NCBI GenBank assembly: GCA_020635075.1
Contig: JACKAM010000002.1
Coordinates: 593,811 to 657,810, forward strand
Direction of reading: 5' to 3'
Length of the DNA: 64,000 nt
Origin: Pseudobdellovibrionaceae bacterium
Lineage (GTDB): Bacteria > Bdellovibrionota > Bdellovibrionia > Bdellovibrionales > UBA1609
Shown here: one piece after another, positions 40,560-53,541 of the stretch
Layout: each line of letters opens with the position of its first letter
How positions within the stretch are numbered: position 1 is the first letter of the stretch
Made by a program: the position numbers and the translations under genes
The notes under the pieces: model-generated
Database searches by the model: none
What the model was told of the DNA's origin: nothing
What the model saw: only the letters and a program-made list of their open reading frames with translations

Positions 40560-42056
40560 TTACTTACAAAATGGAGCGTCGGGCATGATCTGGCAGAGAG
40601 CTTCACAAAGAGCGGGATCGCCGAGAGGACAATCGCCTCCTCCACCACCGCCGCCGCCACCGCCACCGGAGGACTGGCCGACATAGATCTTGTAAGAAGA
40701 GGCCTGGTTGCCGTTAGCGTCTTTCACAGAGACGGTGGTTTCACCCTTTGCCACACCAGTCAGCATACCGCTCGCATCGATAGTTGCGACCCCAGTGTCT
40801 GAGCTAGCGAAGGTCAAAGGTGCTACGCCGTTTCTGGCCGAGAAGGCAAGTTTGTCGCCAACTGCAAGAGTTTCTGCGAAGGGAACAACATACATCTTTT
40901 TGTCTAGCAGAGCTGTCATTGCCGCTCCGGCATCCACACGGCAGTCACAAGCTGTTTCAATGCCGACCTTGGCTGCTGTTGACTGAATCAGTGAGCGAAC
41001 CTCAACACCGGTCATGGTGGGGTCCTGAGCCAAAAGCAGAGCCACAACTCCGGACACCAATGGCGTTGCCATGGAAGTTCCGGATAGGTTGCCGTATTTG
41101 TTGTTGGGAAGGGTGCTCATAATGCCTTCACCTGGAGCCGCTACGTCCACCGTGTGCTTACCGTAGTTGGACCAACTGGGCTTTTTGTCACCCTCTCCAC
41201 TGGCTGCAACCGAGATCATGTTGGGCGTGTTGGCATTGGCTGGGAACACATCTGTACGATCGTTAGACTTCCCATCATTGGCGGCCGCCACCACAAAAAT
41301 GACTCCAGCCTTGTCAGCTCTTTCCACTGCTTCAATAAGTGGCTTCGCCTGAGACCTGGGAACTGCGGCTCCCCAGCTGGCAGAAATCACGCGAGCTCCC
41401 TTTTCGATGGCGTAGTCAATGGACTTGATCCCCGCCATAAGGTCTCCACCGCCATCGGCGCCAAGAAAACGAATCGGCATAACCGAGACTTCAGGGCTCA
41501 GACCGATAATTCCCCCGTCAGCCAGGCCAGATGCGCCTAAGCTTCCTGTACAGTGAGTACCGTGTCCGGGGTTGCGGCCAACGATGTCCATTGGATCATT
41601 GTCGTTATCTTTAAAGTCATAACCAGGAATCATATTGGCCCGGAGAGATTCGTGATTGTAATCCACACCGGTGTCAATGACGGCAACAATCACGTTCTTG
41701 CTACCTCTGTTGCCGGCCTTTTGCCAAGCTTGCTCAGCGTTTACCTTAACGTTGGCCCATTGTTTTTTAAGAGCCATGGGTTCAACCGGAGTGGTGATCG
41801 CGCGAAGCTTGAAGTTCTTCACCACATACTCAACGTTGCTGTTCTGTCTGAGAAGTTTTAGAGCCTCTTGCTCTTGAGAGTCTTCAATATTAACTTTCGT
41901 CAGCCCGGCAACGGAGTGAGTCTCCATCACACTGAGTCCCACCAGGTTTGAGAACGTCATCATTTTCTGAGACTTCTGCTTCACAATGTATTCGCCCGCC
42001 AACGATCCGCTAGCGAAAAAAAGTGCTATCACTGCCAAAATCAATCTTTGATTCAT
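40560..42056 (-). CDS. Secreted S8 (subtilisin-like) serine peptidase with Ig-like (Big_2-type) domain, Gly11 linker and 4-Cys C-terminal tail
   Basis: VAVIDTGVD (Asp), HGTHCTG (His) and GTSMATP (Ser) catalytic blocks. Signal peptide MNQRLILAVIALFFASGSLA. The C-terminus is SSG11DCPLGDPALCEALCQIMPDAPFCK. Confidence 0.9.
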   Translation of the reverse strand: MNQRLILAVIALFFASGSLAGEYIVKQKSQKMMTFSNLVGLSVMETHSVAGLTKVNIEDSQEQEALKLLRQNSNVEYVVKNFKLRAITTPVEPMALKKQWANVKVNAEQAWQKAGNRGSKNVIVAVIDTGVDYNHESLRANMIPGYDFKDNDNDPMDIVGRNPGHGTHCTGSLGASGLADGGIIGLSPEVSVMPIRFLGADGGGDLMAGIKSIDYAIEKGARVISASWGAAVPRSQAKPLIEAVERADKAGVIFVVAAANDGKSNDRTDVFPANANTPNMISVAASGEGDKKPSWSNYGKHTVDVAAPGEGIMSTLPNNKYGNLSGTSMATPLVSGVVALLLAQDPTMTGVEVRSLIQSTAAKVGIETACDCRVDAGAAMTALLDKKMYVVPFAETLAVGDKLAFSARNGVAPLTFASSDTGVATIDASGMLTGVAKGETTVSVKDANGNQASSYKIYVGQSSGGGGGGGGGGGDCPLGDPALCEALCQIMPDAPFCK

Positions 42057-42321
42057 AATCCACCCTCCTTAGTGGTTCCAAAATGGGAACACCTGATCCA
42101 ACCATGGTCCAGCGTCCTTCGCCAAATTTTTTGTGATAAACCCCTGAAGTAAGGTGCGCGTCGGGTCCTTGGTCCGTATCACCAGTGATACAACCTAGAC
42201 CTTTTTTGCCCGAACCTAGCCTGACGTCTAGGTCGTGAGTTGAGGTGCCACCCCCAGACCAAGTGTTTTTGAAAATTGAATTTGAAGAGGCTTTGTCCGG
42301 ATGTTGCCGCCTAATTAGGTT

Positions 42322-43365
42322 TTATCCTCGATTTAGCTCTGCCGTGCTTAGTCCCCGTTTTATCATGAATTCTATCGCATCATTTGCATTAATATGTTCA
42401 ATTTCGATTTCCGGGTGAGAATCTTTGAAAACCCTGAAAACCTCATCGACAAAGGCTTGCCCTACGGCGCTTATGCCTTTGAAATCCAAAATCACGTGGT
42501 TGAATTTTTCAATTCCTTTTAGAATTCTTTTTGCCTGAGATCGAGAGACAAACCGTTCATCACCCAACTTACTAAATTGAACCAATATATGAGTTTTGTC
42601 GAAGGCTTTGGTTTCGGGGTTTTGATAGTGATCGAAAATATCTTGAAGGTCTCTTTTTGAGTTCTTCATTATCTCCATTGTGACTATCGTGCCTTTACCC
42701 TTAGAATTTTCCCGATCCTCAATAAACCAATCATCCTGGGAGTTATCCCTAACATACAATAGGCCGTTCGAATATATCGTGAAGACATCAAAAGCTCTGG
42801 AACTAAAAAAGATTCCTTCACCACTGTGGTAGTCGGGAGCCGTCGTAAATTTTCCTTTGATCAAATGTAGAACGGACTCTCTGATGTCCTCCAGGTTTAA
42901 ATATTCCTGAATTTTTCTAAACACGCCAATTCCGTCGTCTGTAATTGTGAGCTCGATTTTTTCAGCATCAACTCCGACATCTACCTTGATTTTTTTGCCC
43001 TCTGAGTGATCTACGGCATTATTAAAGATCTCCCCAAAGCCATAGTAGCAGATGTCTTCAACTCCTTTGTCTATGCCCTTAAATGTCGACGATAAGCTAT
43101 CATCCCAGACTTTGTGCTCTTCGGGATGCTCTACTATTTTGAACACAAGCTCCTTGTTGAGAGCTCCCGCGAGGTAGTACCTTGCCCCCCTTTTTGCTCC
43201 CGTCTTTATCAGCTTTTCATTGTTGATGAGTGTATTGATGTGCCTGTGAACCGTCGTCCTCGTGACGCCAAACTTTCTTTCGACCACCTCAACCAGGTCA
43301 GAGGGATGTTGCGCAACTGACGTCAGGATAAACTCTCTAATTTTCTCAGCCCTGTCTTTACCCAC
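42322..43365 (-). CDS. Orphan fusion protein: N-terminal winged-helix HTH + GHKL (SpoIIAB-like) ATPase + C-terminal STAS-like DUF4325
   Basis: HTH-like GVTRTTVHRHINTLINNEKLIKTG. N-box EIFNNAVDHS, G1 DDGIGV, G2 GEGIFF. DUF4325-like VILDFKGISAVGQAFVDEVFRVF. The gene is AT-rich. Confidence 0.7.
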   Translation of the reverse strand: MGKDRAEKIREFILTSVAQHPSDLVEVVERKFGVTRTTVHRHINTLINNEKLIKTGAKRGARYYLAGALNKELVFKIVEHPEEHKVWDDSLSSTFKGIDKGVEDICYYGFGEIFNNAVDHSEGKKIKVDVGVDAEKIELTITDDGIGVFRKIQEYLNLEDIRESVLHLIKGKFTTAPDYHSGEGIFFSSRAFDVFTIYSNGLLYVRDNSQDDWFIEDRENSKGKGTIVTMEIMKNSKRDLQDIFDHYQNPETKAFDKTHILVQFSKLGDERFVSRSQAKRILKGIEKFNHVILDFKGISAVGQAFVDEVFRVFKDSHPEIEIEHINANDAIEFMIKRGLSTAELNRG

Positions 43366-43816
43366 TGACTCAGTCCTTTTATCGGTTTTGTAACTATCGA
43401 TACTCTCATTTATAACGGTCTAGACCACTTTTATCAACTAGTTATTTAAATTTTAAGACCTAGTTTTAAATATATGGTAACTGTCCGTGTGAGTATTTAT
43501 AACTATCTGCTCATCGGCGACCCGGCAGCATCCAGTCAGGCCGATTAAACCCCCAAAAGCCATCCTCAATAGTACATAAAATATTGGAATTATGTATTTT
43601 TTCCAGATTTCGCCACCGATTGGCCATTCAAAGAGCGATCACAAACAAAGGCTGGGATCGAGGTGTCAGATTTAACACTATATGGATAGATATAAACAAC
43701 TAGTTCTATAGGTCAAGCCCCCCCTTGCTCAAAAAGGCCCGACTGCCATGCCCAGTTTAAGCGGGGGGCACCACTCCCCTTCTCCGCCTGGAGCCAGGCG
43801 CCTAACGTCTTATGAC

Positions 43817-44446
43817 CTAGCAGCCTCGATAAGTTGTGTGGTTTTTGCAGAGCGGGACTAGTTCACCTTTTTCATTGCGCTTGTAAAGACCATAGTTGTC
43901 GGTCAGCTTTCCCTGTTCGTTGCCAATAAAGTACACTTCCCCGTCAGCCATAAAGGCGCTTGTCGGCACAACTCGAAAGTCATCCTCCCAGCCAATCTGG
44001 TCGCCGTAATAATTGAATTGCCAAGTCAGCAAGAAGTTCCCACATGCTCCAAAGAACTTGCGAACCTTTTGCCCTGCTGGTTCACTTCTAGAGATCATAA
44101 CGTCCTTAGGTCTCAGGCTAACTAGAGCCTCCTTTGCCCCACCAATTGAACGCCGGTCCAGGATCTCCGCATCGGGAATGCTTGTATTGTCTTCAGGCAG
44201 CCAAATTTTTTGATCGCCAGCCTTCTCACCTTCTTCTTTTGGAGGGCCACCAATCCTCCATAGACCCTCGGCCACCATTACCGTTGGGTGAGTGTGCCAG
44301 TGCCCTATATCGGACACCGGCCTCAAGGGTCGAACAATAAGATATCGCATCGTGATCTTCTCATTCCCAACCCTTAAGTCAGAAGGATCGTGAACCTCCA
44401 AGCGGCCAACTAAGTCTGCATAGGTAACTGACCCGACCCCCTCAAA
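43817..44446 (-). pseudogene. Cupin-like hypothetical gene, 3' portion, interrupted by IS3 insertion
   Basis: The track ORF starts only at a GTG inside the IS3 left terminal repeat. A GHWHTHP cupin-like motif is present. The 5' portion is found in frame beyond the IS (47209-47298). Confidence 0.55.
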
Positions 44447-44483
44447 CTTGACCACCTAGAGTCGAGCGATTAGAGGAGGGTAT

Positions 44484-44768
44484 ATGGGAAAACGAGGCAA
44501 AAGATACACATCAGAACAGATCATCACCAAGCTTCGGGAGGCTGAAGTCCTGCAAAGTCAGGGTGCCTCTCAGGCACGGATCTGCAAGCAGCTAGGCGTT
44601 GCTGTGGACACATACATCCGTTGGCGAAAAGAGTACGGCGGGATGCGAGTCGATCAAGCTAAACGCCTGAAAGACCTGGAAAAAGAGAATCAGCGTCTTA
44701 AAAAGCTAGTTGCAGATCTCGCTCTCGACAAGGCAATGCTCGAAGAGGTTAACAAGGGAAACTTCTGA
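44484..44768 (+). CDS. IS3-family transposase OrfA (HTH)
   Basis: KRYTSEQIITKLREAEV...ICKQLGV...YIRWRKEYGGM...LKDLEKENQRLKKLVADL. Confidence 0.9.
   Translation: MGKRGKRYTSEQIITKLREAEVLQSQGASQARICKQLGVAVDTYIRWRKEYGGMRVDQAKRLKDLEKENQRLKKLVADLALDKAMLEEVNKGNF
44756..44762 (+). other. Candidate -1 programmed frameshift heptamer G_GGA_AAC joining OrfA to OrfB
   Basis: An X_XXY_YYZ heptamer in the correct phase of OrfA (codons AAG GGA AAC). The orfB frame is -1 and open from here. Confidence 0.5.
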
Positions 44769-44797
44769 GCCCGGCGCGGAAGAGGCAGGCAGCGGCA

Positions 44798-45322
44798 ATG
44801 CTTGTTGAGCGCTTCTCCACTTCTGAACGTCGGGCCTGTAAGGTTTTGGGACTTCATCGCAATACAAAGCGCTACCAGCCAAAAGAAGATAGGGTGAACC
44901 GTGAGGTCACCCCCAGGATCATCCACTATGCCGGTGAATATGGCCGCTATGGATACAAGCGAGTGACTGCCCTAGTTCGCGCCGAAGGCTTCAAGATCAA
45001 TCACAAAAGAGTTTATCGCATTTGGCGACAGGAAGGCCTTAAGGTCCCGGAAAAACAGCCAAAACGAAGTCGTCTGTGGTTCAACGATGGCTCCTGCATT
45101 AGGAAACGGCCCGAGTACAAGAACCATGTCTGGTCCTACGACTTTGTTCACGACTACACCTATGACGGAAGGCCCATAAAGATGCTCACAATCCTCGACG
45201 AGTTTTCCCGTGAAAGCCTCGCCATTGTTGTAAACCGGAAACTTAACTCACTCGATGTGTTAGAAACACTTGCAGATCTTTTTGTTCAGCGAGGAGTGCC
45301 AAAGTACATTCGATCAGATAAC
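44798..45322 (+). pseudogene. IS3 transposase OrfB, N-terminal part (interrupted after ...KYIRSDN)
   Basis: HTH_21/rve start: ACKVLGLHRNTKRY...HVWSYDFV...ILDEFSRE. The conserved SDNGPEF block is split at 45322/45323. Confidence 0.85.
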
Positions 45323-46910
45323 GTACTAAATGAGATGGCAAGTTAAAAGTTTAGACAAAGCTCCGCCGTTTGCGGCATCCATTCCGCGAAGAATTCAGAA
45401 ATCATATCTCACCCGGCTTCCGAACCTGAATGAAAAATGCTTCTACCATAGTGACACAAGGTCGGATGTTATCCGCCTTCACTGTACTTAAAACGAAGTT
45501 TAATCTCAGCCGGAAGACCCAAGCATTGTCTACGAGGTCGGTTTATGAGACCGCCTCCACGGCCCGTTGTGAGCGGGTTTTTCCGGTGAGCACAGGCTCG
45601 TAAAATGGCCTGTAAATAGTTTGTTCCTTTATCAATTTAAAAATAACTCGTGCCAGCTTTGCGGTCACAGCAGTGTATGCGCGCCGCTTTAGATCGCTAT
45701 TGGTGGGGTCTGCTTTGACATAGCGATTAAATTTGTCTCTGAAAGTGTTCTCGCGTAGCCGAAGCGCGACTGTTGCCGCAATCCAAAGCGCTGACCTGAG
45801 TCGAGCGTTTCCCCGTTTGGAAATTGAAGATCGTCCTCGAAAAAGACCAGATTGTTGAGTAGAAAGATCTAGGCCGCAGAATTTTAAAAACTGCTTCTCG
45901 TGATGAAAACGTCGAAGATCTCCAGCTTCCGCTAATATAGTAAGCGCGATGATTGGGCCAATGCCGGGAACTGATCGAAGTATCTGGTAGTCGCGATTGT
46001 CTTTTAACTTTTTGTGAGCGATCTTCTCGAGCTCATCTCGCTTTTTGCAAAGCCTCAGATGTTCTTCGAGCATCATTCGAAACATCTGGACAACATTTGA
46101 CTCCAAAGAAACGGGAACTCCGATGCTTGACCGAGCACACTCATAGAAGTCGGCGAGGATCTCGCCTTTCCCCTGTTTTGATGATAGCAATGCTCGAGCC
46201 GAATCAACGAAGGTCGATCTTTCAATCGCGGTCACTGCAGCGGGTGTGGGATATACTGAAAGCAAACGGCCGAACCATCCGGCACGACTTGAACCAAAGA
46301 ACTTCTCTGCCTCAGGAAAATAGATGGGCAGGTAGTGATTAAGAATACTGTGTTGAAGTCTCGTCTTCCGCAAGGAGATCTGAAAGTGAGAATTTGAAAG
46401 CTCTTGGAGATCATTATTGCCTCGAAGAACTGGGTCATGAAATACAGTTGAGATATGATTACGCAGAAGATGAATCATCACTTGAGCATCTTTTGGGTCA
46501 TTTTTGTCCCAAGTACTGTGGAGCGCTTCTCTCGTTCGTGCAACGGCAAGCGACGATATTAGCCGAACATCGAAGCCTGAAGTTTGTAGGTAGTAAGCAA
46601 TCGCTCGGTGGTAGTCAGCTGTAGGTTCGAAACCAATCGTGCATGGCAAAGAAAACCCTCGTAAGCGGTCAGCCAGGTCATCAAAATCCTCCCGACAGTT
46701 GCGTACGGTTAAGCGCAGACGTCGCCCCTCGGGGGTCTCGATGAGAATGTCATGCTTGTACTTGGCTATATCTATTGCTACCAAAACCTTTAAATCCTGA
46801 TTAGACTGTTGTTGCATTATTTAAAGCTCCTCTTCGTTGAATTTGCGTTGTAAGCAAACCAAGTTTACGTGGAGGAGCCCTTCCTGACTACTTGCATCTT
46901 GAGGTACTAC
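45323..46910 (-). mobile_element. IS110-family insertion sequence nested in IS3 orfB
   Basis: Removing exactly 45323-46910 rejoins orfB in frame (..RSDN|GPEF..). AC is present at both junctions (45321-45322 and 46909-46910). There are no long terminal IRs, as expected for IS110. The non-coding ends measure 93 nt (5') and 220 nt (3'). Confidence 0.85.
45543..46817 (-). CDS. IS110-family (DEDD) transposase/recombinase
   Basis: VAIDIAKYKH...GFEPTADYH...DKNDPKDA (DEDD_Tnp_IS110). C-terminal LRSVPGIGPIIALTILAEAGDLRRF...SGLFRGRSSISKRGNARLR (Transposase_20). Confidence 0.9.
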   Translation of the reverse strand: MQQQSNQDLKVLVAIDIAKYKHDILIETPEGRRLRLTVRNCREDFDDLADRLRGFSLPCTIGFEPTADYHRAIAYYLQTSGFDVRLISSLAVARTREALHSTWDKNDPKDAQVMIHLLRNHISTVFHDPVLRGNNDLQELSNSHFQISLRKTRLQHSILNHYLPIYFPEAEKFFGSSRAGWFGRLLSVYPTPAAVTAIERSTFVDSARALLSSKQGKGEILADFYECARSSIGVPVSLESNVVQMFRMMLEEHLRLCKKRDELEKIAHKKLKDNRDYQILRSVPGIGPIIALTILAEAGDLRRFHHEKQFLKFCGLDLSTQQSGLFRGRSSISKRGNARLRSALWIAATVALRLRENTFRDKFNRYVKADPTNSDLKRRAYTAVTAKLARVIFKLIKEQTIYRPFYEPVLTGKTRSQRAVEAVS

Positions 46911-47186
46911 GGTCCGGAATTTATTGCCAAGAGGTTGCAGGACTGGTTCCAAAAACTTAGCGTCAGTCCATTGTTTATAACTCCGGGAAGCCCGTGGGAA
47001 AACGGATACATAGAATCGTTTAACGGCAGGCTGCGCGACGAGCTTTTAAACGGCGAGCTGTTTTATACCTTGAAGGAGGCTCAAGTTTTGATTGAAAAAT
47101 GGCGAAGGAATTACAACACTGTTAGGCCTCATAGCAGCCTAGGTTACAGACCACCAGCTCCTGAGGCATTAACACTTGCTATGTAA
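46911..47186 (+). pseudogene. IS3 transposase OrfB, C-terminal part
   Basis: [12 protein letters not shown]...[21 protein letters not shown]...[15 protein letters not shown]. Confidence 0.85.
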
Positions 47187-47427: not shown

Positions 47428-48345
47428 GTGGCAATACCCAGCTTTAGATCATTTTTAAGACCCGTCCTTGAAATCATGGCAGAGATAAACGAAGTTTCTA
47501 ATCCGAGGGCAAAGCTGGTTCCTATTGTAAAAGAGAAGATGGGCTTTAGCGATGAGGAAGCCGCTGAAAGGTTGGAGTCTGGCGGTAATAGACTTCAAAA
47601 TCGTGTTGGATGGGCGTTAACCTACCTTAAGAAATCTGGGCTAATCGAGTCACCAAAAAGAGGCGTGGCCACAATCACTGAGTCTGGACGTAATTTTCTT
47701 AACGAGCATGACGGCCCGATCTCACCAAAAGATCTCGAAGTATTTCCTGGTTATTTGGAGTTTAAAGCGGGAAATAAAAACAACGAAAAAAATGGCTCAG
47801 CTGAACCTGAAACAGATATTGATGAAATCGATCCAGAAGAAAAAATTAATATGGGCTTCAAAGAAATTAAAAACTCTGTGATTGATGAACTTCAAGAGAA
47901 GCTACTTGAGCTTACCCCCACGCAGTTTGAAGAACTCGTATTGAATCTCATTCAGGCCCTAGGCTATGGCATTCAAACAGGGAAAATCGAGCACACAGGC
48001 GGTTCTGGCGACTTTGGGATTGATGGCATTGTCCACTTAGACAAACTTGGCCTCGACAAGATATACCTTCAGGCTAAAAGATATAAACCATCCAATAAAA
48101 TCAGCAGCTCCGAGATTCAAAAGTTTTTTGGAGCCTTAAAAGGAAGACATGCTTCTAAAGGGATCTTCCTTACTACATCCTCATATCAACCGAGTGCCCT
48201 GGAATACGCTCAAACTGTCTCCGATACACTGGTTTTACTTGATGGCCGCCAAATAGCCGAGCACATGATCGATGCAAAAGTGGGCGTATCTGCAAAGAGA
48301 AAAATCATAATCCCTGAGATAGACAACGACTATTTCGATAACTAA
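47428..48345 (+). CDS. mrr: Mrr-family type IV (modification-dependent) restriction endonuclease
   Basis: Mrr_N: IPSFRSFLRPVLEIM...LQNRVGWALTYLKKSGLIE. Mrr_cat: FEELVLNLIQALGY...GGSGDFGIDGIV...IYLQAKRY. Confidence 0.9.
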   Translation: MAIPSFRSFLRPVLEIMAEINEVSNPRAKLVPIVKEKMGFSDEEAAERLESGGNRLQNRVGWALTYLKKSGLIESPKRGVATITESGRNFLNEHDGPISPKDLEVFPGYLEFKAGNKNNEKNGSAEPETDIDEIDPEEKINMGFKEIKNSVIDELQEKLLELTPTQFEELVLNLIQALGYGIQTGKIEHTGGSGDFGIDGIVHLDKLGLDKIYLQAKRYKPSNKISSSEIQKFFGALKGRHASKGIFLTTSSYQPSALEYAQTVSDTLVLLDGRQIAEHMIDAKVGVSAKRKIIIPEIDNDYFDN

Positions 48346-48494: not shown

Positions 48495-48758
48495 ATGAAG
48501 AAGAGGTACACAGAAGAACAGACAATTGCGGCGGTTAAAAGGCTTGAAGCCGGCATGTCGGCAAAAGAGCTCAGCCGAGAATTGGGCGTCAGCCAGCAGA
48601 CCCTCTACCACTGGAAGAAGAAGTTTGGCGGCATGGACGTATCGGAGGCTAGGCGCTTGAAGGAGCTTGAGGCTGAGAACGCAAAGCTTAAGCGCATTGT
48701 GGCCGACCAGGCCTTAGATATCGTCATGCTCAAGGATGTGAACTCAAAAAAGTGGTAA
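48495..48758 (+). CDS. IS3-family transposase OrfA
   Basis: AAGGAG at 48481-48486. MKKRYTEEQTIAAVKRLEAGMSAKELSRELGVSQQTLYHWKKKFGGM...LEAENAKLKRIVADQ. Confidence 0.9.
   Translation: MKKRYTEEQTIAAVKRLEAGMSAKELSRELGVSQQTLYHWKKKFGGMDVSEARRLKELEAENAKLKRIVADQALDIVMLKDVNSKKW
48746..48752 (+). other. A_AAA_AAG -1 programmed frameshift site (OrfA to OrfAB)
   Basis: The canonical IS3 slippery heptamer, in phase (codons TCA AAA AAG) and 4 nt before the OrfA stop. orfB is in the -1 frame. Confidence 0.7.
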
Positions 48759-49579
48759 GGCCCAGTGAGAGCCGGGCCGAGGCGAAGTACTTGGTGAACA
48801 AGTACAGTAAGCCTGTGGCCCGTATTTGCCGTCTTCTGGGCCTGTCCGTGTCGACATACAACTATCAAGAGAAGGCCAAAGATGATGGACCTATTCGAGA
48901 GAAGTTTGAATCTCTTGTTGAAGACCATCGAAGGTTTGGACATCCAAGACTTTTTGTAATGATGAAGCGAGACATGCCTGGGGTAAACCACAAGCGCACA
49001 CGAAGGATCTATAGAGAAATGGGACTACAAATAGGTCGAAGAAAAAGGAAAAAACTTGGCAGTCGTGGGCGACTGCCAGCAACCACTGCGTCGGCACCCA
49101 ACGAGATCTGGGCCATTGATTTTATGTTCGATTACATCGAGTCAGGTCGAAGACTCAAGGTGCTTACAACAGTTGACGAATTTGCCAAGGAGTCGCCCGG
49201 AATACTTGTAGACCATTCTATACGCGGCGTGGACGTCACAGCTTTTCTGGATCATCTAGCATGTGGTAATTATCCGAAAGTCATTCGCATCGATCAGGGT
49301 ACAGAGTTTACGTCTCGCGCAATGCTCGACTGGGCGTACAGGCACGGGATCACTCTTGAATTCACCAGAGTTCGAAAGCCTAATCAGATTATCGAATCAT
49401 TCAACTCTCGTGTAAGAGACGAGTGCCTCAATGAGCACGCATTTTTTAGCCTAGAGGATGCCAGGCAAAAGATCGATGCCTGGCACTGGAAGTACAACAA
49501 CATCAATCCGCATTCGGCATTGGGGATGAAATCTCCAGTGGAGTTTGCAAAAGAACGGGAAAGTATGTTAGCAAGTTAA
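48752..49579 (+). CDS. IS3-family transposase OrfB (rve integrase core; expressed as an OrfAB fusion)
   Basis: NEIWAIDFM...TVDEFAKE...IRIDQGTEFTS...NQIIESFNSRVRDECLN...NNINPHSALG (DDE). Confidence 0.9.
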   Translation: MVRPSESRAEAKYLVNKYSKPVARICRLLGLSVSTYNYQEKAKDDGPIREKFESLVEDHRRFGHPRLFVMMKRDMPGVNHKRTRRIYREMGLQIGRRKRKKLGSRGRLPATTASAPNEIWAIDFMFDYIESGRRLKVLTTVDEFAKESPGILVDHSIRGVDVTAFLDHLACGNYPKVIRIDQGTEFTSRAMLDWAYRHGITLEFTRVRKPNQIIESFNSRVRDECLNEHAFFSLEDARQKIDAWHWKYNNINPHSALGMKSPVEFAKERESMLAS

Positions 49580-49802: not shown

Positions 49803-50432
49803 ATGAGTGAAGTGGCTAAAATTTCAAAAACACAAGAACTACTATTTTCTCACCTTGATAGAGTCAGAAAATCTATTGGTGAAATTAAGATCGGCAGTCC
49901 AGAGCAGTTCCCCTATGGGTGGCGTAAAGCAGCTAAAGGAAGAACGGTGTGGCGTATTCTAGAAGAGTGCTTAAACCAAAAGCTAGAAACTTCCAACACA
50001 GGGGAGTCAATTTTTACTCCTGCTGATTCTGAAGTGGGCGTATTCGACTTTCATGCAAACTTCGCCTCTGAAAATTGCGAAGGCTTTGTGAATATAAAGT
50101 CAGCAACCAAAGGCAGAAAGAATAGCAAAGACGATTTGAGTAAAGCCATCAGGCTTATCGAGTTTTATCAACAGAATCCAAATGCTCACATCTTTATTGC
50201 AACTTTTGAAATAGAATTCCTAGATGATATGAAAATTGCTTTACCATCGTGTTATGTGATGCCGTTAGCTTGGATACCTGACGTCTATGTTAACCCAAGC
50301 AACAATGGGAACTTACAATCAGCAAAGTACAAAGACTTAGACTTGGCGGTTAAACGCACAAATCAAGAGTTTTATGATGAGTTAGTGAAGGCAAATGAGG
50401 TAGCAATTCAAAAGAAGCGTAAAAAGAGCTAA
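49803..50432 (+). CDS. Hypothetical protein; candidate restriction endonuclease partner of the adjacent methyltransferase
   Basis: 209 aa, AT-rich, convergent with the MTase and overlapping it by 4 nt. There is a possible PD...(D/E)xK-like arrangement (TPADSE...EGFVNIKS). I recognise no family, so the function rests on position only. Confidence 0.4.
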   Translation: MSEVAKISKTQELLFSHLDRVRKSIGEIKIGSPEQFPYGWRKAAKGRTVWRILEECLNQKLETSNTGESIFTPADSEVGVFDFHANFASENCEGFVNIKSATKGRKNSKDDLSKAIRLIEFYQQNPNAHIFIATFEIEFLDDMKIALPSCYVMPLAWIPDVYVNPSNNGNLQSAKYKDLDLAVKRTNQEFYDELVKANEVAIQKKRKKS

Positions 50433-52084
50433 ACAAGAATTTCCCTAATTCGATTATTAAATGATTTATTATCTATTTCCCCGCACAATAGACTTCGATA
50501 TACCTCAGAAAGGTTTTTTGTCAGTATCTCATCATCCTCAAAATTCGGGCAAGGTATGCTTTGAACGTCTCTAGGCTCAAACTTGTTTAGCCCATCGCCC
50601 AACTTACGAATATTTTGCCTTACAAGCCCAGCCGCAACATCAGACATCAAAAATGCACAAACCGCATCAAGTAATTCCTGAGGGTGATTGCCTTTAAGAA
50701 ATAAACCATGAAAACAAGTGAGATTTGCTACTTTCGCTCCGTTAGATATCACTTTCACAGAATCCCGAAAAAACGTACCGATCAATGCAGGGGCTATTTT
50801 AATGTTTTCCATGCTATACCAGGGAGTTCTTCTCGCAGGCAGATATTTTTTGTCTACCCCTAAACTTAATCCATGCTCAATGTAAGCAGCAACTCTTGGG
50901 TCCTTAGAATCTTTCTCCTTCAAATCAAGTACATAAACTGGTTTGTCGTTAGATTCGATTTGCTCAACTAATTTATCAGTTAGCTGAAGTCCACTAATAT
51001 GCGTACTTTTTGTTATGCATAATTGGAAATATTTAGGGTTTAGATCCCACTCTTTGATTTTTGATTTGTCGAAAATATAAAAATTATTAGCTCCAGTAGC
51101 AAGACCTCTACTACATCTAACAAAGTCGCCAATTTTTCGAGTAAAACTATCGTTTAATTTAACTTCAGTTCCTATCAAATTCCACTTGGACTCGGCCGGA
51201 AGTTTGTCATATTCGATTGTGCTAAATATCTTTTCTAGTCCCTTTGCATCCCCTTTTTTGTGGTTCTGCAGAGATGAAAACAGCTTGCTCCAATCATCAT
51301 TACAATTGATCCTATAGTACCTTAAATTAGAAGATTTAGTTTTTTCAAATAAGACAAGACAGCTAGTAGTAATGGCACTGTCAAACAAATTTAGATTCGA
51401 ATCGAAAAACACAAAGCGAATATCAATGCCTAGCTTCTTCATGTAGGCTTTGATTGGCGTACCATAGTCGGTATTGAGAAACTCTTTCGGAATTATGAAT
51501 GCTCCTCGTCCACCGTCTTTGATCTTGTCTAGAACCTTTATCAAAAAGAAATTATAGAGATTTGTCATTGAGGAAATTTTAGCCCCAACAACTTTGGAAA
51601 AGTGATCTCTCTTTTCTTGTGACAAGCGAGATACTTTGTAAATGATGTAGGGCGGATTACTGATAGCTCTATCAAACTCAGGGAGTGAGGCGTCTATAAA
51701 ATCTTGCCCTAGTATTTCTATATTATTGAATGCACCAAGCCTCTCAAGTAGGTCCTGAGACCTTAACCTGAGCTCTCCATCTACCTCATAGCATATCAAT
51801 TTTTTATACTGACCTTCAAAATGTTGATTTATTGCCCATTCGAAAACACCTAATCCTGAGCCTGGATCTATAATTATCGAATCAGAGGAGGGTGACAGCC
51901 ATAAAGCTAAGGCTTCAGCTATCTCTGGTGGAGTAAAAAATTGCCCATAGTTTTTTAGGTGATCCTTATCTCTTGTAGAGTAGTAAGAGGAATATTCTCC
52001 AGTTATTTGATTCGTGAATAAGTTATTTTCCTCTAACAAGCACCCCTCCAAGATTGGCTTGAACATTACTAAAAAAAGAGACAA
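50429..52084 (-). CDS. N6-adenine DNA methyltransferase (gamma class, Eco57I/TaqI-like) with C-terminal target-recognition domain
   Basis: GQFFTPPEIA, motif I IIDPGSGLGVF and motif IV SNPPYI. The track ORF starts at TTG 52084. The first ATG is at 52066, so the start is uncertain. Confidence 0.85.
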   Translation of the reverse strand: MSLFLVMFKPILEGCLLEENNLFTNQITGEYSSYYSTRDKDHLKNYGQFFTPPEIAEALALWLSPSSDSIIIDPGSGLGVFEWAINQHFEGQYKKLICYEVDGELRLRSQDLLERLGAFNNIEILGQDFIDASLPEFDRAISNPPYIIYKVSRLSQEKRDHFSKVVGAKISSMTNLYNFFLIKVLDKIKDGGRGAFIIPKEFLNTDYGTPIKAYMKKLGIDIRFVFFDSNLNLFDSAITTSCLVLFEKTKSSNLRYYRINCNDDWSKLFSSLQNHKKGDAKGLEKIFSTIEYDKLPAESKWNLIGTEVKLNDSFTRKIGDFVRCSRGLATGANNFYIFDKSKIKEWDLNPKYFQLCITKSTHISGLQLTDKLVEQIESNDKPVYVLDLKEKDSKDPRVAAYIEHGLSLGVDKKYLPARRTPWYSMENIKIAPALIGTFFRDSVKVISNGAKVANLTCFHGLFLKGNHPQELLDAVCAFLMSDVAAGLVRQNIRKLGDGLNKFEPRDVQSIPCPNFEDDEILTKNLSEVYRSLLCGEIDNKSFNNRIREILV

Positions 52085-52149: not shown

Positions 52150-52347
52150 CCTAGAATGATATCCAGTGATGTACGGTGATATTCAAGAAATCCGCCCCTG
52201 ATAACCCATTGAAAGTAGTTATTAGGGCTCTTCCCGGTTAAGGGTGGGAAACGCGGCGTTAAAGGCATAAAAAAAGGAACCATCTAATTCCTCTCAGTTT
52301 TAAGGTTTGAGTTGCGAAACAAAAACTTTAAACAAAAAGGATCTTCG

Positions 52348-53541
52348 ATGGCTCCTATTCATTCTCGTGTATCACACTTTGTGCTCTCACCTGAACTAAA
52401 ACTCACTGATCATCGCTTTTTAGGGCGTTTCCAGACCATTTTTGACGTGCATAAAGAATCCTCATTCGAAGTCTGCCCTAAATGCGCTACCAAATCCTTC
52501 TCCGTCCACGATCGCAGGTGGGTCAAAATCAAAGATGCACCCATCAGAGGAAATGGAATCCTCCTCAGAATTCGAAAACGACGCTTTAGGTGCCCCGCTT
52601 GCAAGGCCGTGTTCACTGAACCCGTCGGACTTGTTCAGAAAGGCTACAGGACCACGAGACGATTTAGAAAAAACCTGGCTTGGTCCTGCAACAACCTCCT
52701 TGATCTCAAACGCGTCCAAAAAGCCCACAAATGCTCCGCCTGGCTCGTTTACAAGGTCTTCTATGAACAACTCGAGCTAGAACACAGAAAAATCAAAAAC
52801 GACCCCTGGCCAAAAACCATTGGCATCGATGAACACACCTTCAAACGCAATAAAAACAAGGGGTACAGAGAGTTCGCAACTGTCCTCGTCGACTACAATC
52901 ACAGACGAATCAAAGAAGTCGTGCACGGAAAAACTGCTGCTGGACTTCAACGGGATCTCTACCATATACAGGGGCGAGAAAACGTCCGTAACGTCGTCCT
53001 CGACCTCTGTGACCCATTTAAAAAGTTCGCCAAAGAACACTTCCCAAATGCTCGCATCGTCGCCGACAAGTTCCATGTGCTCAGAATTCTAAACCCAGCC
53101 ATCAATAAAAGAAGAACCTCCATCACGGGCGATAAAAGATCCAATCCCGTTAGAAAACTCCTACTTAGAAACGGATTTAAACTCGAGTACTTCGAAAGAA
53201 AAGCCCTCTGGAAATGGCTCGATCAAAACCCTGACGTCAAAGAAGTCTACTTCTACAAAGAAGCACTTCATCAGCTCTACCGCACCAAAGGCTACCACAA
53301 GGCATCCAGAGCCCTCACAAGGCTTACTGATGAAATGGCCCACTCAAATCTACCCGAAATTAAAACCCTAAGGAAAACCCTCATGAAGTGGAGAAATGAA
53401 ATCCTGAACTACTTTATAACACGACTTACCAACGCAAGAACCGAAGGCTTTAATAACCTCGCAAAGCTTTACCAGAAGAGGGCTTTCGGATATAAGAACT
53501 TCGAAAATTACCGACTCAGACTCTTAAATGCAGGTATTTAG
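52348..53541 (+). CDS. ISL3-family transposase
   Basis: zf-ISL3: CPKCATKSFSVHDRRWVKIKD...RFRCPACKAVF. DDE_Tnp_ISL3: IGIDEHTF...VLDLCDPFKK...ADKFHVL...NARTEGFNN. Start at ATG 52348 (AAGGA upstream); the track start is TTG 52312. The element ends are not securely identified. Confidence 0.9.
   Translation: MAPIHSRVSHFVLSPELKLTDHRFLGRFQTIFDVHKESSFEVCPKCATKSFSVHDRRWVKIKDAPIRGNGILLRIRKRRFRCPACKAVFTEPVGLVQKGYRTTRRFRKNLAWSCNNLLDLKRVQKAHKCSAWLVYKVFYEQLELEHRKIKNDPWPKTIGIDEHTFKRNKNKGYREFATVLVDYNHRRIKEVVHGKTAAGLQRDLYHIQGRENVRNVVLDLCDPFKKFAKEHFPNARIVADKFHVLRILNPAINKRRTSITGDKRSNPVRKLLLRNGFKLEYFERKALWKWLDQNPDVKEVYFYKEALHQLYRTKGYHKASRALTRLTDEMAHSNLPEIKTLRKTLMKWRNEILNYFITRLTNARTEGFNNLAKLYQKRAFGYKNFENYRLRLLNAGI

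Follow-up and report, generated by a model that had tools for sequence, protein, structure and literature searches.

To our knowledge, the one role long recognised for pairs of a GHKL-type kinase and a STAS-domain partner was that of anti-sigma partner switches. In 2026 such pairs were shown to control immune operons and also a toxin upon DNA damage (Chambers et al., EMBO J 2026, PMC13373217): CapK, a kinase of helix-turn-helix (HTH)-STAS-GHKL order switched on by single-stranded DNA (ssDNA), phosphorylates Ser54 of CapS, a repressor composed of a STAS and a winged HTH (wHTH) domain, whereupon immune operons are de-repressed, and VapK (STAS-GHKL) phosphorylates Ser48 of the STAS antitoxin VapS to free the PIN toxin VapC, the VapKSC system giving ~2 logs of protection against one phage. 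Here we describe a single gene encoding a wHTH, a GHKL domain and a STAS-like DUF4325 domain in one polypeptide of 347 residues, located in a 64,000-nt stretch (hereafter the window) of a Pseudobdellovibrionaceae bacterium (assembly GCA_020635075.1, contig JACKAM010000002.1, positions 593,811 to 657,810). The gene is preceded by an array of direct repeats whose counterparts occur across a large family of such proteins and co-vary with their recognition helix, and we judge it probable, if short of certain, that the protein controls its own expression and is related, as a single chain, to the GHKL-kinase/STAS switches of which CapK-CapS and VapK-VapS are the type cases.

The open reading frame (ORF) is exactly as an earlier note on this DNA had described it, with 347 codons at 42322-43365 on the minus strand and a GTG start, and the motifs picked out there as hallmarks of a Bergerat ATPase (EIFNNAVDHS, DDGIGV and GEGIFF) are all present in the translation. 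The gene, its parts and its 3' flank are as follows.

42322..43365, minus strand: gene for the wHTH-GHKL-STAS(DUF4325) protein, 347 residues (ORF list, full-length homologues); start codon GTG at 43365-43363, stop codon at 42322-42324
43168..43365, minus strand: N-terminal wHTH, residues 1-66 (Pfam, structure model, HTH matches of relatives, helix/repeat co-variation), with the recognition helix R36-T-T-V-H-R-H42
42661..43134, minus strand: GHKL (Bergerat) ATPase/kinase domain, residues ~78-235 (HATPase_c, Foldseek match to SpoIIAB, motif conservation), with N box E112..N116..H120-S121, G1 D143-x-G-x-G147, lid K170-G-K-x-T174 and G2 G182-E-G184
42550..42660, minus strand: low-confidence linker, residues ~236-272 (structure model, pLDDT 50-64)
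42325..42549, minus strand: C-terminal STAS-like DUF4325 domain, residues 273-347 (Pfam, domain model, STAS fold matches, hhalign, conservation)
42057..42321: 3' intergenic region of 265 bp before an S8 protease gene, with three CTAG sites (42195, 42216, 42228) and no recognised element

The proposed three-part architecture (winged helix, SpoIIAB-type GHKL and DUF4325) was borne out by Pfam, by an AlphaFold2 (AF2) model and by Foldseek. Pfam assigned residues 277-331 to DUF4325 (PF14213, STAS-like; E 8.9e-15, 54.6 bits with the cut-off at 23) and residues 110-230 to HATPase_c (E 3.8e-7, 31 bits against 26.4), while an HTH of the IclR/MarR type at residues 13-48 was a weak match below the cut-off (E ~2e-3); relatives match HTH_24/MarR_2 more strongly (E ~6e-6). 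NCBIfam returned only fragmentary histidine-kinase and anti-sigma matches for the window protein. The AF2 model, built with 26 family sequences, has a mean predicted local distance difference test score (pLDDT) of 81.7 and comprises an N-terminus of three helices and a beta wing (residues 3-65, pLDDT ~90), an alpha/beta GHKL core and, behind the poorly predicted linker, a separate C-terminal alpha/beta domain. A predicted winged helix at the N-terminus is thus supported by the model and by the HTH matches of relatives, despite the weak Pfam score. A weak profile match to the PKZ Z-alpha domain (E 4e-3) raised the possibility of a Z-DNA-binding wHTH, which we set aside as generic wHTH similarity; the Z-alpha contacts of ADAR1, which we take to be Asn173 and Tyr177, fall in a by-eye alignment on His40 and Asn44 of the window protein. 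In the fold comparison that the earlier note had called for, SpoIIAB chains 1til, 1l0o and 1tid ranked first against the PDB (E ~5e-5, target-normalised template modelling (TM) score 0.72), and the C-terminal 96 residues modelled alone (pLDDT 82) gave top matches that were all STAS domains (prestin, RsbS, SLC26, stressosome and YchM; probability 0.97-0.99, TM ~0.55-0.6, but E ~1e-2). The N box, G1 and G2 motifs and an above-cut-off HATPase_c match place the middle domain in the GHKL superfamily, with ATP binding or hydrolysis and kinase activity as putative properties.

This protein is a member of a large and uniform family of ~345 residues and no one-off fusion. A word-indexed search with it returned >6000 matches (90% clusters), the best 120 of which are 336-374 residues long with 96-100% query coverage and, apart from a few close relatives, ~50% identity; when a profile was run against 1.84 billion 50%-identity representatives, 1078 proteins matched at E<=1e-30, nearly all of them of 340-360 residues and end to end. 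At least 537 copies were found in a scan of one genome per species (185,579 genomes), in Nitrospinota, Bdellovibrionales, Coxiella/Legionellales and other Gammaproteobacteria, Patescibacteria (candidate phyla radiation), Chloroflexota, Cyanobacteria, Planctomycetota, Acidobacteriota and others, and an identical protein is encoded on a metagenome contig in ENA. Source databases call the members merely 'DUF4325 domain-containing protein' or 'anti-sigma regulatory factor (Ser/Thr protein kinase)', and a full-text literature search found no publication on the wHTH-GHKL-STAS(DUF4325) architecture, in agreement with the note, whose author knew of no established function for it; the family is uncharacterised in the searchable literature. 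Longer members offer no informative fusion: their extensions lack Pfam domains, and a 326-residue N-terminal extension with an RHS-repeat match, in a protein of 684 residues (P0136), probably stems from a gene call that took in an upstream Rhs fragment.

Across 120 non-identical members with 30-100% identity to the window protein, conservation of at least 95% was seen at E112, N115, N116, H120 and S121 of the N box, at D143, G145 and G147 of G1, at K170-G-K172-x-T174 of the lid, at H180 and G182-E-G184 of the G2 region and, in the STAS domain, at S274-R-S276 and G302-Q303. All of these residues are present in the window copy, which therefore looks intact. Position 302 is Gly in 118/120 members, 303 is Gln in 115/120 and 304 is Ala or Gly in 119/120.

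To relate the family to the described switches, we took the CapK, CapS, VapK and VapS sequences from the supplementary files of PMC13373217. VapS is a clear DUF4325 protein (Pfam E 2.7e-17), and hhalign aligned KGIEKFNHVILDFKGISAVGQAFVD of the window protein with RHLESKDEVILDFSNVKMFASPFFN of VapS without gaps (E 1e-3), placing Ser48 opposite Gln303. Since this acceptor position is Gln, flanked by G302 and A/G304 and thus by neither Ser nor Thr, the DUF4325 domain cannot be a canonical substrate, and a canonical kinase-substrate fusion is ruled out. The earlier idea of a partner-switching kinase and its STAS-type partner fused to a DNA-binding domain therefore holds in outline, VapS itself being DUF4325, and fails for the STAS part as a phospho-substrate. 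The likeness to VapKSC lies in the shared Pfam family of VapS and the C-terminal domain and in the logic of pairing GHKL with STAS; VapKSC, however, consists of three genes including the PIN toxin VapC, whereas here there is one gene with no PIN neighbour, and VapK has an N-terminal STAS of its own and no wHTH. With CapK-CapS, the family shares the same blocks (HTH, GHKL kinase and STAS) and a repressor that binds its own promoter and is autoregulated, which for the family is a prediction; but capK and capS are two adjacent genes that precede an immune operon, whereas the single gene here has no conserved downstream gene or operon in the 82 loci considered below, and Ser54 of CapS has no Ser/Thr counterpart. 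The N-box form E-x-x-x-N-x-x-[D/E]-H-S is common to the family, CapK and VapK. As for SpoIIAB-SpoIIAA and RsbW-RsbV, SpoIIAB is the best structural match of the GHKL domain and the partner domain likewise has a STAS fold; unlike in those pairs, however, there is no Ser/Thr at the start of STAS helix 2 (G302-Q303-A/G304, in the register of the hhalign alignment to VapS), the partners are covalently fused with a DNA-binding domain, and no conserved sigma factor or PP2C phosphatase lies nearby. Thus, the window protein is no member of CapKS, VapKSC or SpoIIAB/AA but, by analogy, plausibly works like them.

Our main new result concerns the DNA in front of the family genes. By k-mer counting, the 8-mer TTGACAAT occurred in 41/83 upstream regions of 300 nt, compared with 0/80 downstream regions and 0 shuffled controls. 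It belongs to arrays of two to seven copies of GTT[G/T]ACAAT, all in gene orientation and 21-22 bp apart, typically at ~-72, -50 and -28 from the start codon; the spacers vary from copy to copy, which marks the sites as iteron-like and sets them apart from plain tandem repeats. In the subfamily nearest the window, the repeat is (A/C)TAGTTA(T/C)AA(T/A) at the same spacing. In a de novo periodicity test (9-mer, <=2 mismatches, spacing 20-23), three or more periodic copies were found in 58/129 upstream regions versus 12/360 random 220-nt controls. Moreover, the repeat changes with the recognition helix: with the loci bearing periodic copies counted per helix class, the xTTVHRH helix of the window protein goes with GTTA[TC]AA (9/17 loci, none with TTGACAA or TTTACA), RQRAHxY with TTTACA[AG] (8/10), RQAVxxH with TTGACAA (25/47, none with GTTAYAA), xQAV(N/H)NH with CCTTT[AC]A (4/4) and RMTxxRH with ACATGTTA (2/2). 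These helix/repeat classes cross phyla, and the remainder of the protein is conserved. The four xQAV(N/H)NH loci (L042, from the culturable Methylotuvimicrobium buryatense 5G, L043, L071 and L040) have a distinct element, two direct copies of TCCTTTAAGAAAA and an inverted TTCTTAAAGGAT right before the start codon, and the repeats of the two RMTxxRH loci (L014 and L025) are built on a palindromic core, AACATGTTA(T/C)AA.

The association was also seen in the opposite direction. A blind scan of 241 million metagenome records for GTTGACAAT N12-13 GTTGACAAT N12-13 GTTGACAA returned 120 loci, and where the array was of iteron type, counted as non-identical spacers with at least 300 nt of room downstream, a family gene followed immediately in 67/76 cases (88%), the median distance to the last core being 29 nt. 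We set aside arrays whose spacers were near-identical, mostly unrelated tandem repeats; such GTTGACAAT tandem repeats (L139, L152, L163, L170, L220, L253 and others) have 11-, 21- or 22-bp units with identical spacers, some of them inside ORFs. The nine orphan arrays of iteron type share no common downstream gene. At one locus (L239, 39-89), an iteron-type array of three GTTGACAAT copies is followed by an IS5-like transposase on the opposite strand in place of the family gene, which suggests a disrupted cassette.

In the window, the array lies within the 5' intergenic gap of 451 bp (43366-43816), and its units are listed here with a second, candidate element further upstream.

43387..43505, minus strand: six direct repeats, or iterons (position weight matrix from other loci, exact matches, homologous arrays)
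43496-43505, minus strand: unit 1, TAGTTATAAA
43474-43483, minus strand: unit 2, CAGTTACCAT
43453-43462, minus strand: unit 3, TAGGTCTTAA, weak
43461-43470, plus strand: inverted near-copy overlapping unit 3, TAGTTTTAAA
43431-43440, minus strand: unit 4, TAGTTGATAA, weak
43409-43418, minus strand: unit 5, CCGTTATAAA
43387-43396, minus strand: unit 6, TAGTTACAAA
43671..43702, minus strand: candidate distal degenerate pair, 22 bp apart, TAGTTGTTTA at 43693-43702 and TAGTGTTAAA at 43671-43680
43687-43696, plus strand: inverted near-match at the distal pair, TAGATATAAA

Read on the minus strand, the units start at 43505, 43483, 43462, 43440, 43418 and 43396, so that the start-to-start spacings are 22, 21, 22, 22 and 22 bp; between the end of the last unit and the GTG lie 21 nt. 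A position weight matrix (PWM) built from 39 units of 11 other loci, with the window excluded, had its two best matches in the 64 kb, on either strand, at 43506 (16.9 bits) and 43397 (15.2 bits), and exact TAGTTAYAAA has two matches only in the 64 kb, at the same two sites. The five-unit periodic score peaks at the array (32.5, versus a 99.99th percentile of 22.8), and the PWM revealed no second array in the window. The distal pair scores low (-1.9 and 4.5 bits, with a one-mismatch match); it is weak and may have arisen by chance. CTAG occurs seven times in the two flanks and not at all in the ORF, against 119 seen and 248 expected in the whole window. The 5' flank is CTAG-rich because of its ACTAGTT-type repeats, so that the note's remark on CTAG-rich flanking DNA had touched on the array and overlooked it. 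The CTAG sites of the 3' flank (CCTAGAC, GCTAGGT and TCTAGGT, within 34 bp at 42195-42228) have neither 22-bp spacing nor a PWM match. No terminator-like site was found on the minus strand of 42057..42321.

Taken together, the upstream arrays, the co-variation of helix and repeat, and the blind scan indicate that the protein most likely binds the repeats of its own promoter and probably represses it, and we propose the window array as an operator overlapping the promoter. The repeats resemble sigma-70 hexamers, with TTGACA as a -35 and TATAAT/GACAAT as a -10 element. At a spacing of 21-22 bp, two successive units could provide the -35 and then the -10 element, separated by a spacer of 17-18 bp, so that occupancy should exclude RNA polymerase. 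The arrangement of a wHTH gene beside three to seven direct repeats with a ~21-22-bp periodicity is also that of iteron Rep proteins and of direct-repeat-binding wHTH and LytTR regulators, and AgrA-type sites have a 9-bp core and a 12-13-bp spacer, as do the repeats here; the family differs from these in having no Rep or receiver domain, a chromosomal location and no copy on a PLSDB plasmid.

From these data we derive the following scheme. The N-terminal wHTH would bind the 9-10-bp repeats every 21-22 bp just before the start codon, a step for which the comparative evidence is strong, and their occupancy would block RNA polymerase, keeping the protein at a low, self-set level. The GHKL domain retains every residue required to bind ATP and Mg2+, and the DUF4325 STAS domain would face its ATP site, as in SpoIIAA/SpoIIAB and as predicted for VapS/VapK, with a face carrying S274, S276, G302 and Q303 meeting the ATP lid. 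With Gln303, the STAS domain may be a built-in, non-phosphorylatable partner that acts as pseudo-substrate or sensor lid, docking either in cis or in trans onto the next protomer of a head-to-tail array. By analogy with CapK and VapK, a signal such as ssDNA or DNA damage might alter the ATP-dependent GHKL-STAS contact and cause release from the DNA; by the same analogy, release would raise synthesis of the protein and leave the kinase-like domain free for a target whose gene lies elsewhere.

Several points weigh against this scheme. Binding to DNA, repression of the promoter, use of ATP and contact between GHKL and STAS are each inferred. A further output must exist, because self-regulation alone cannot be the selected function, and no target in trans was found: the window holds no second array and the orphan arrays no common gene. 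Units 3 and 4 of the six in the window are degenerate, with PWM scores below zero; the helix/repeat counts are phylogenetically non-independent, and about one-third to one-half of the loci in each helix class had no periodic repeat in the simple test. The GHKL domain aligned only weakly with CapK (hhalign E 1.6e-3, probability 16%) and VapK (E 8.7e-3, probability 5%). Membership of CapS in DUF4325, suggested by a by-eye alignment alone, was detected by neither Pfam nor hhalign and was rejected. In addition, the domain order differs, CapK being HTH-STAS-GHKL and CapS STAS-wHTH as against wHTH-GHKL-STAS here, and CapS binds palindromes whereas the sites here are direct repeats.

We then asked what accompanies the gene elsewhere, calling ORFs in 82 non-redundant genome loci (+/-10 kb flank) and clustering the neighbours within five genes by BLASTP. 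Apart from local synteny of a few Nitrospinota genomes, no neighbour family recurs in the 82 loci, and no conserved small or downstream partner gene was found among the +/-5 genes, where ORFs <80 aa were not covered systematically. Nor did these loci have a PIN gene among the neighbours or a recurrent sigma factor or PP2C phosphatase near the family gene. Intergenic gaps on both sides are the rule, and the single-gene unit suspected earlier is thus what the 82 loci display. The 144 genes within two genes of the family gene fall into 171 Pfam families, none in more than three proteins; the commonest are ALAD, sigma-54 activators and AAA ATPases, ResIII is represented by three proteins and SNF2 by two, and integrases or transposases are absent from the top 25. 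PADLOC on these 144 neighbours gave no model matching more than two proteins, those matching two being all SNF2-type helicase models, and PADLOC-DB v2 on the window protein gave nothing significant, the best matches being wHTH parts of CARF, Csa3 and SoFic models (E >=1.4e-3). Neither the 50,697 GenBank phage records nor the 72,556 PLSDB plasmids searched with tblastn contained a copy. One copy lies between lgt and a U32 peptidase gene on a 2.7-Mb chromosome and another between ceramidase and flavoprotein genes, such chromosomal copies among housekeeping genes carrying just ~1.5 kb of DNA of their own. A further copy adjoins the portal gene at the end of a prophage, and IMG/VR holds 51 more divergent copies (30-42% identity) with HTH_3 repressors, tyrosine/serine recombinases, S24 peptidases, transposases and a few structural or lysis genes as neighbours. 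PP2C phosphatases reset STAS phosphorylation in partner-switching systems. In a planctomycete-like metagenome-assembled genome (L004 11680-12945, L005 3872-5137), a single case, the family gene has a prophage portal gene on one side and, 570 bp downstream on the other, a gene for a GAF-SpoIIE (PP2C) phosphatase.

The gene is thus accessory and patchily distributed; integrative elements carry it at times, and defence islands are not its general setting. The 82-locus census and the Pfam and PADLOC results for the neighbours contradict defence-island association as a general property, the negative PADLOC search speaks against a known defence system, and the tblastn results for GenBank phages and PLSDB plasmids speak against phage or plasmid cargo. 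The defence or island-switch role put forward in the earlier note is accordingly not upheld: the neighbours in the 82 loci are non-recurrent and mostly housekeeping, and the neighbourhood tabulation it advised found homologues not enriched in mobile or defence contexts, the outcome that the note itself had named as counting against its reading, with a minority on prophages or integrative elements. Its account of the window itself stands. Pfam identifies the insertion sequence (IS) elements, Mrr and a restriction-modification-type methylase; the gene is AT-rich (GC 0.42 at 42-43 kb versus ~0.50 upstream); and its flanks, given as about 260 and 450 bp, measure 265 and 451 bp. The features around the gene are listed below.

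40560-42056, minus strand: S8 subtilase with a Big_2 domain, the downstream gene
43817-44455, minus strand: putative ORF of 212 residues, next upstream of the array on the same strand, without a Pfam match at E<=1e-3
44484-47186: IS3-family element interrupted by an IS110-family insertion (Pfam)
44484-44768: IS3 orfA (HTH_Tnp_1)
44798-45346 and 46869-47186: IS3 orfB-like ORF, split
45543-46817, minus strand: IS110 transposase
47428-48345: Mrr (Mrr_N and Mrr_cat; Pfam)
48752-49579: second IS3-type integrase (Pfam)
49803-50432: ORF of 209 residues without a Pfam match, convergent with the methylase gene and overlapping its 3' end by 4 bp
50429-52084: Eco57I-like N6 methylase (Pfam)
52312-53541: ISL3 transposase (Pfam)

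The subtilase has a 13-glycine run and a Cys-rich C-terminal tail, and is not conserved beside homologues of the family gene.

The alternative that fares best against these data, although we regard it as unlikely, is that the gene is a single-gene abortive-infection system or fused toxin-antitoxin, in which the GHKL domain would act as a toxic kinase or sequester in anti-sigma fashion, with the non-phosphorylatable STAS fused to it as a linked antitoxin and the wHTH keeping expression low, until a phage product or DNA damage displaced the STAS and growth stopped. VapS, which shares its Pfam family with the C-terminal domain, serves as antitoxin of a phage-protective system, and accessory genes typically show such a patchy cross-phylum spread (at least 537 copies in 185,579 species genomes). 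Toxin-antitoxin modules usually repress themselves tightly. The window gene does lie beside Mrr, a restriction-modification methylase and IS elements, and the 51 IMG/VR loci have integrases, repressors and phage genes close by, as one copy lies at a prophage edge; on the other hand, there is no significant PADLOC match, the neighbours in the 82 loci are not enriched for defence or mobile genes, the GenBank phages and PLSDB plasmids have no copy, and both toxicity and target are putative. With no conserved neighbour, a null PADLOC result and no plasmid or GenBank phage copy, a defence reading is left with the window context and the minority of prophage-borne copies.

A more far-reaching version of the autoregulated switch, which we offer as speculation with rather little confidence, would make the ~1.5-kb unit of array and gene a self-contained, horizontally spreading one-protein switch of a previously undescribed kind. 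Protomers would line up head-to-tail on the 21-22-bp repeats through contacts of GHKL(n) with STAS(n+1), forming an ATP-controlled nucleoprotein filament that a stress or infection signal (e.g. ssDNA) would disassemble, releasing a growth-halting kinase or anti-sigma-like domain. Were this so, the family would be a single-gene fused counterpart of CapKS/VapKSC immunity, and private helix/repeat specificities would prevent cross-talk between co-resident copies.

Still less probable, in our view, is an ordinary one-component transcription factor with a dispersed regulon, whose GHKL-STAS part would sense ATP/ADP or a small ligand and have no kinase output. Direct-repeat-binding wHTH proteins are common as activators and repressors, e.g. 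of the OmpR/PhoB and LytTR types, and such a regulator would suit the many copies amid housekeeping genes and the nine metagenome arrays of iteron type with no family gene downstream. Yet 88% of the blind-found iteron-type arrays directly precede a family gene, no downstream gene is common to the orphan arrays, of which at least one seems to have been disrupted by an IS, the window has no second array, and a self-contained cassette would account for patchy horizontal spread with many private specificities better than a host regulon would. Very improbable, finally, is a role in maintaining a small, (formerly) mobile element, with the repeats as origin or partition iterons and the protein as initiator or site-binding ATPase: three to seven direct repeats at 21-22 bp beside a wHTH gene are classical iteron geometry, as in the iteron plasmids (pSC101, R6K and F replicons) with a wHTH Rep gene after 22-bp-spaced repeats, and some copies are on integrative elements, one with a RepA_N protein as neighbour, but no PLSDB plasmid carries the gene, the protein has no Rep_3 or WH1-WH2 similarity, chromosomal copies sit between housekeeping genes with ~1.5 kb of private DNA, and the repeats reach to ~30 nt from the start codon and resemble promoter hexamers.

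If the protein is an autoregulated relative of CapK-CapS and VapK-VapS, as we favour, the family would be a third, one-polypeptide form of GHKL/STAS switch, spread over many phyla including bacteria with very small genomes. What is new here is the conserved upstream direct-repeat array and, with it, a predicted operator code that is concrete and testable. The helix/repeat pairs give an experimental handle, with defined predicted sites, predicted specificity-switching residues and the scope for reporter fusions, and would amount to a natural set of apparently orthogonal repressor-operator pairs. Moreover, the change from Ser to Gln at the acceptor site may reveal how a STAS domain works when it is non-phosphorylatable.

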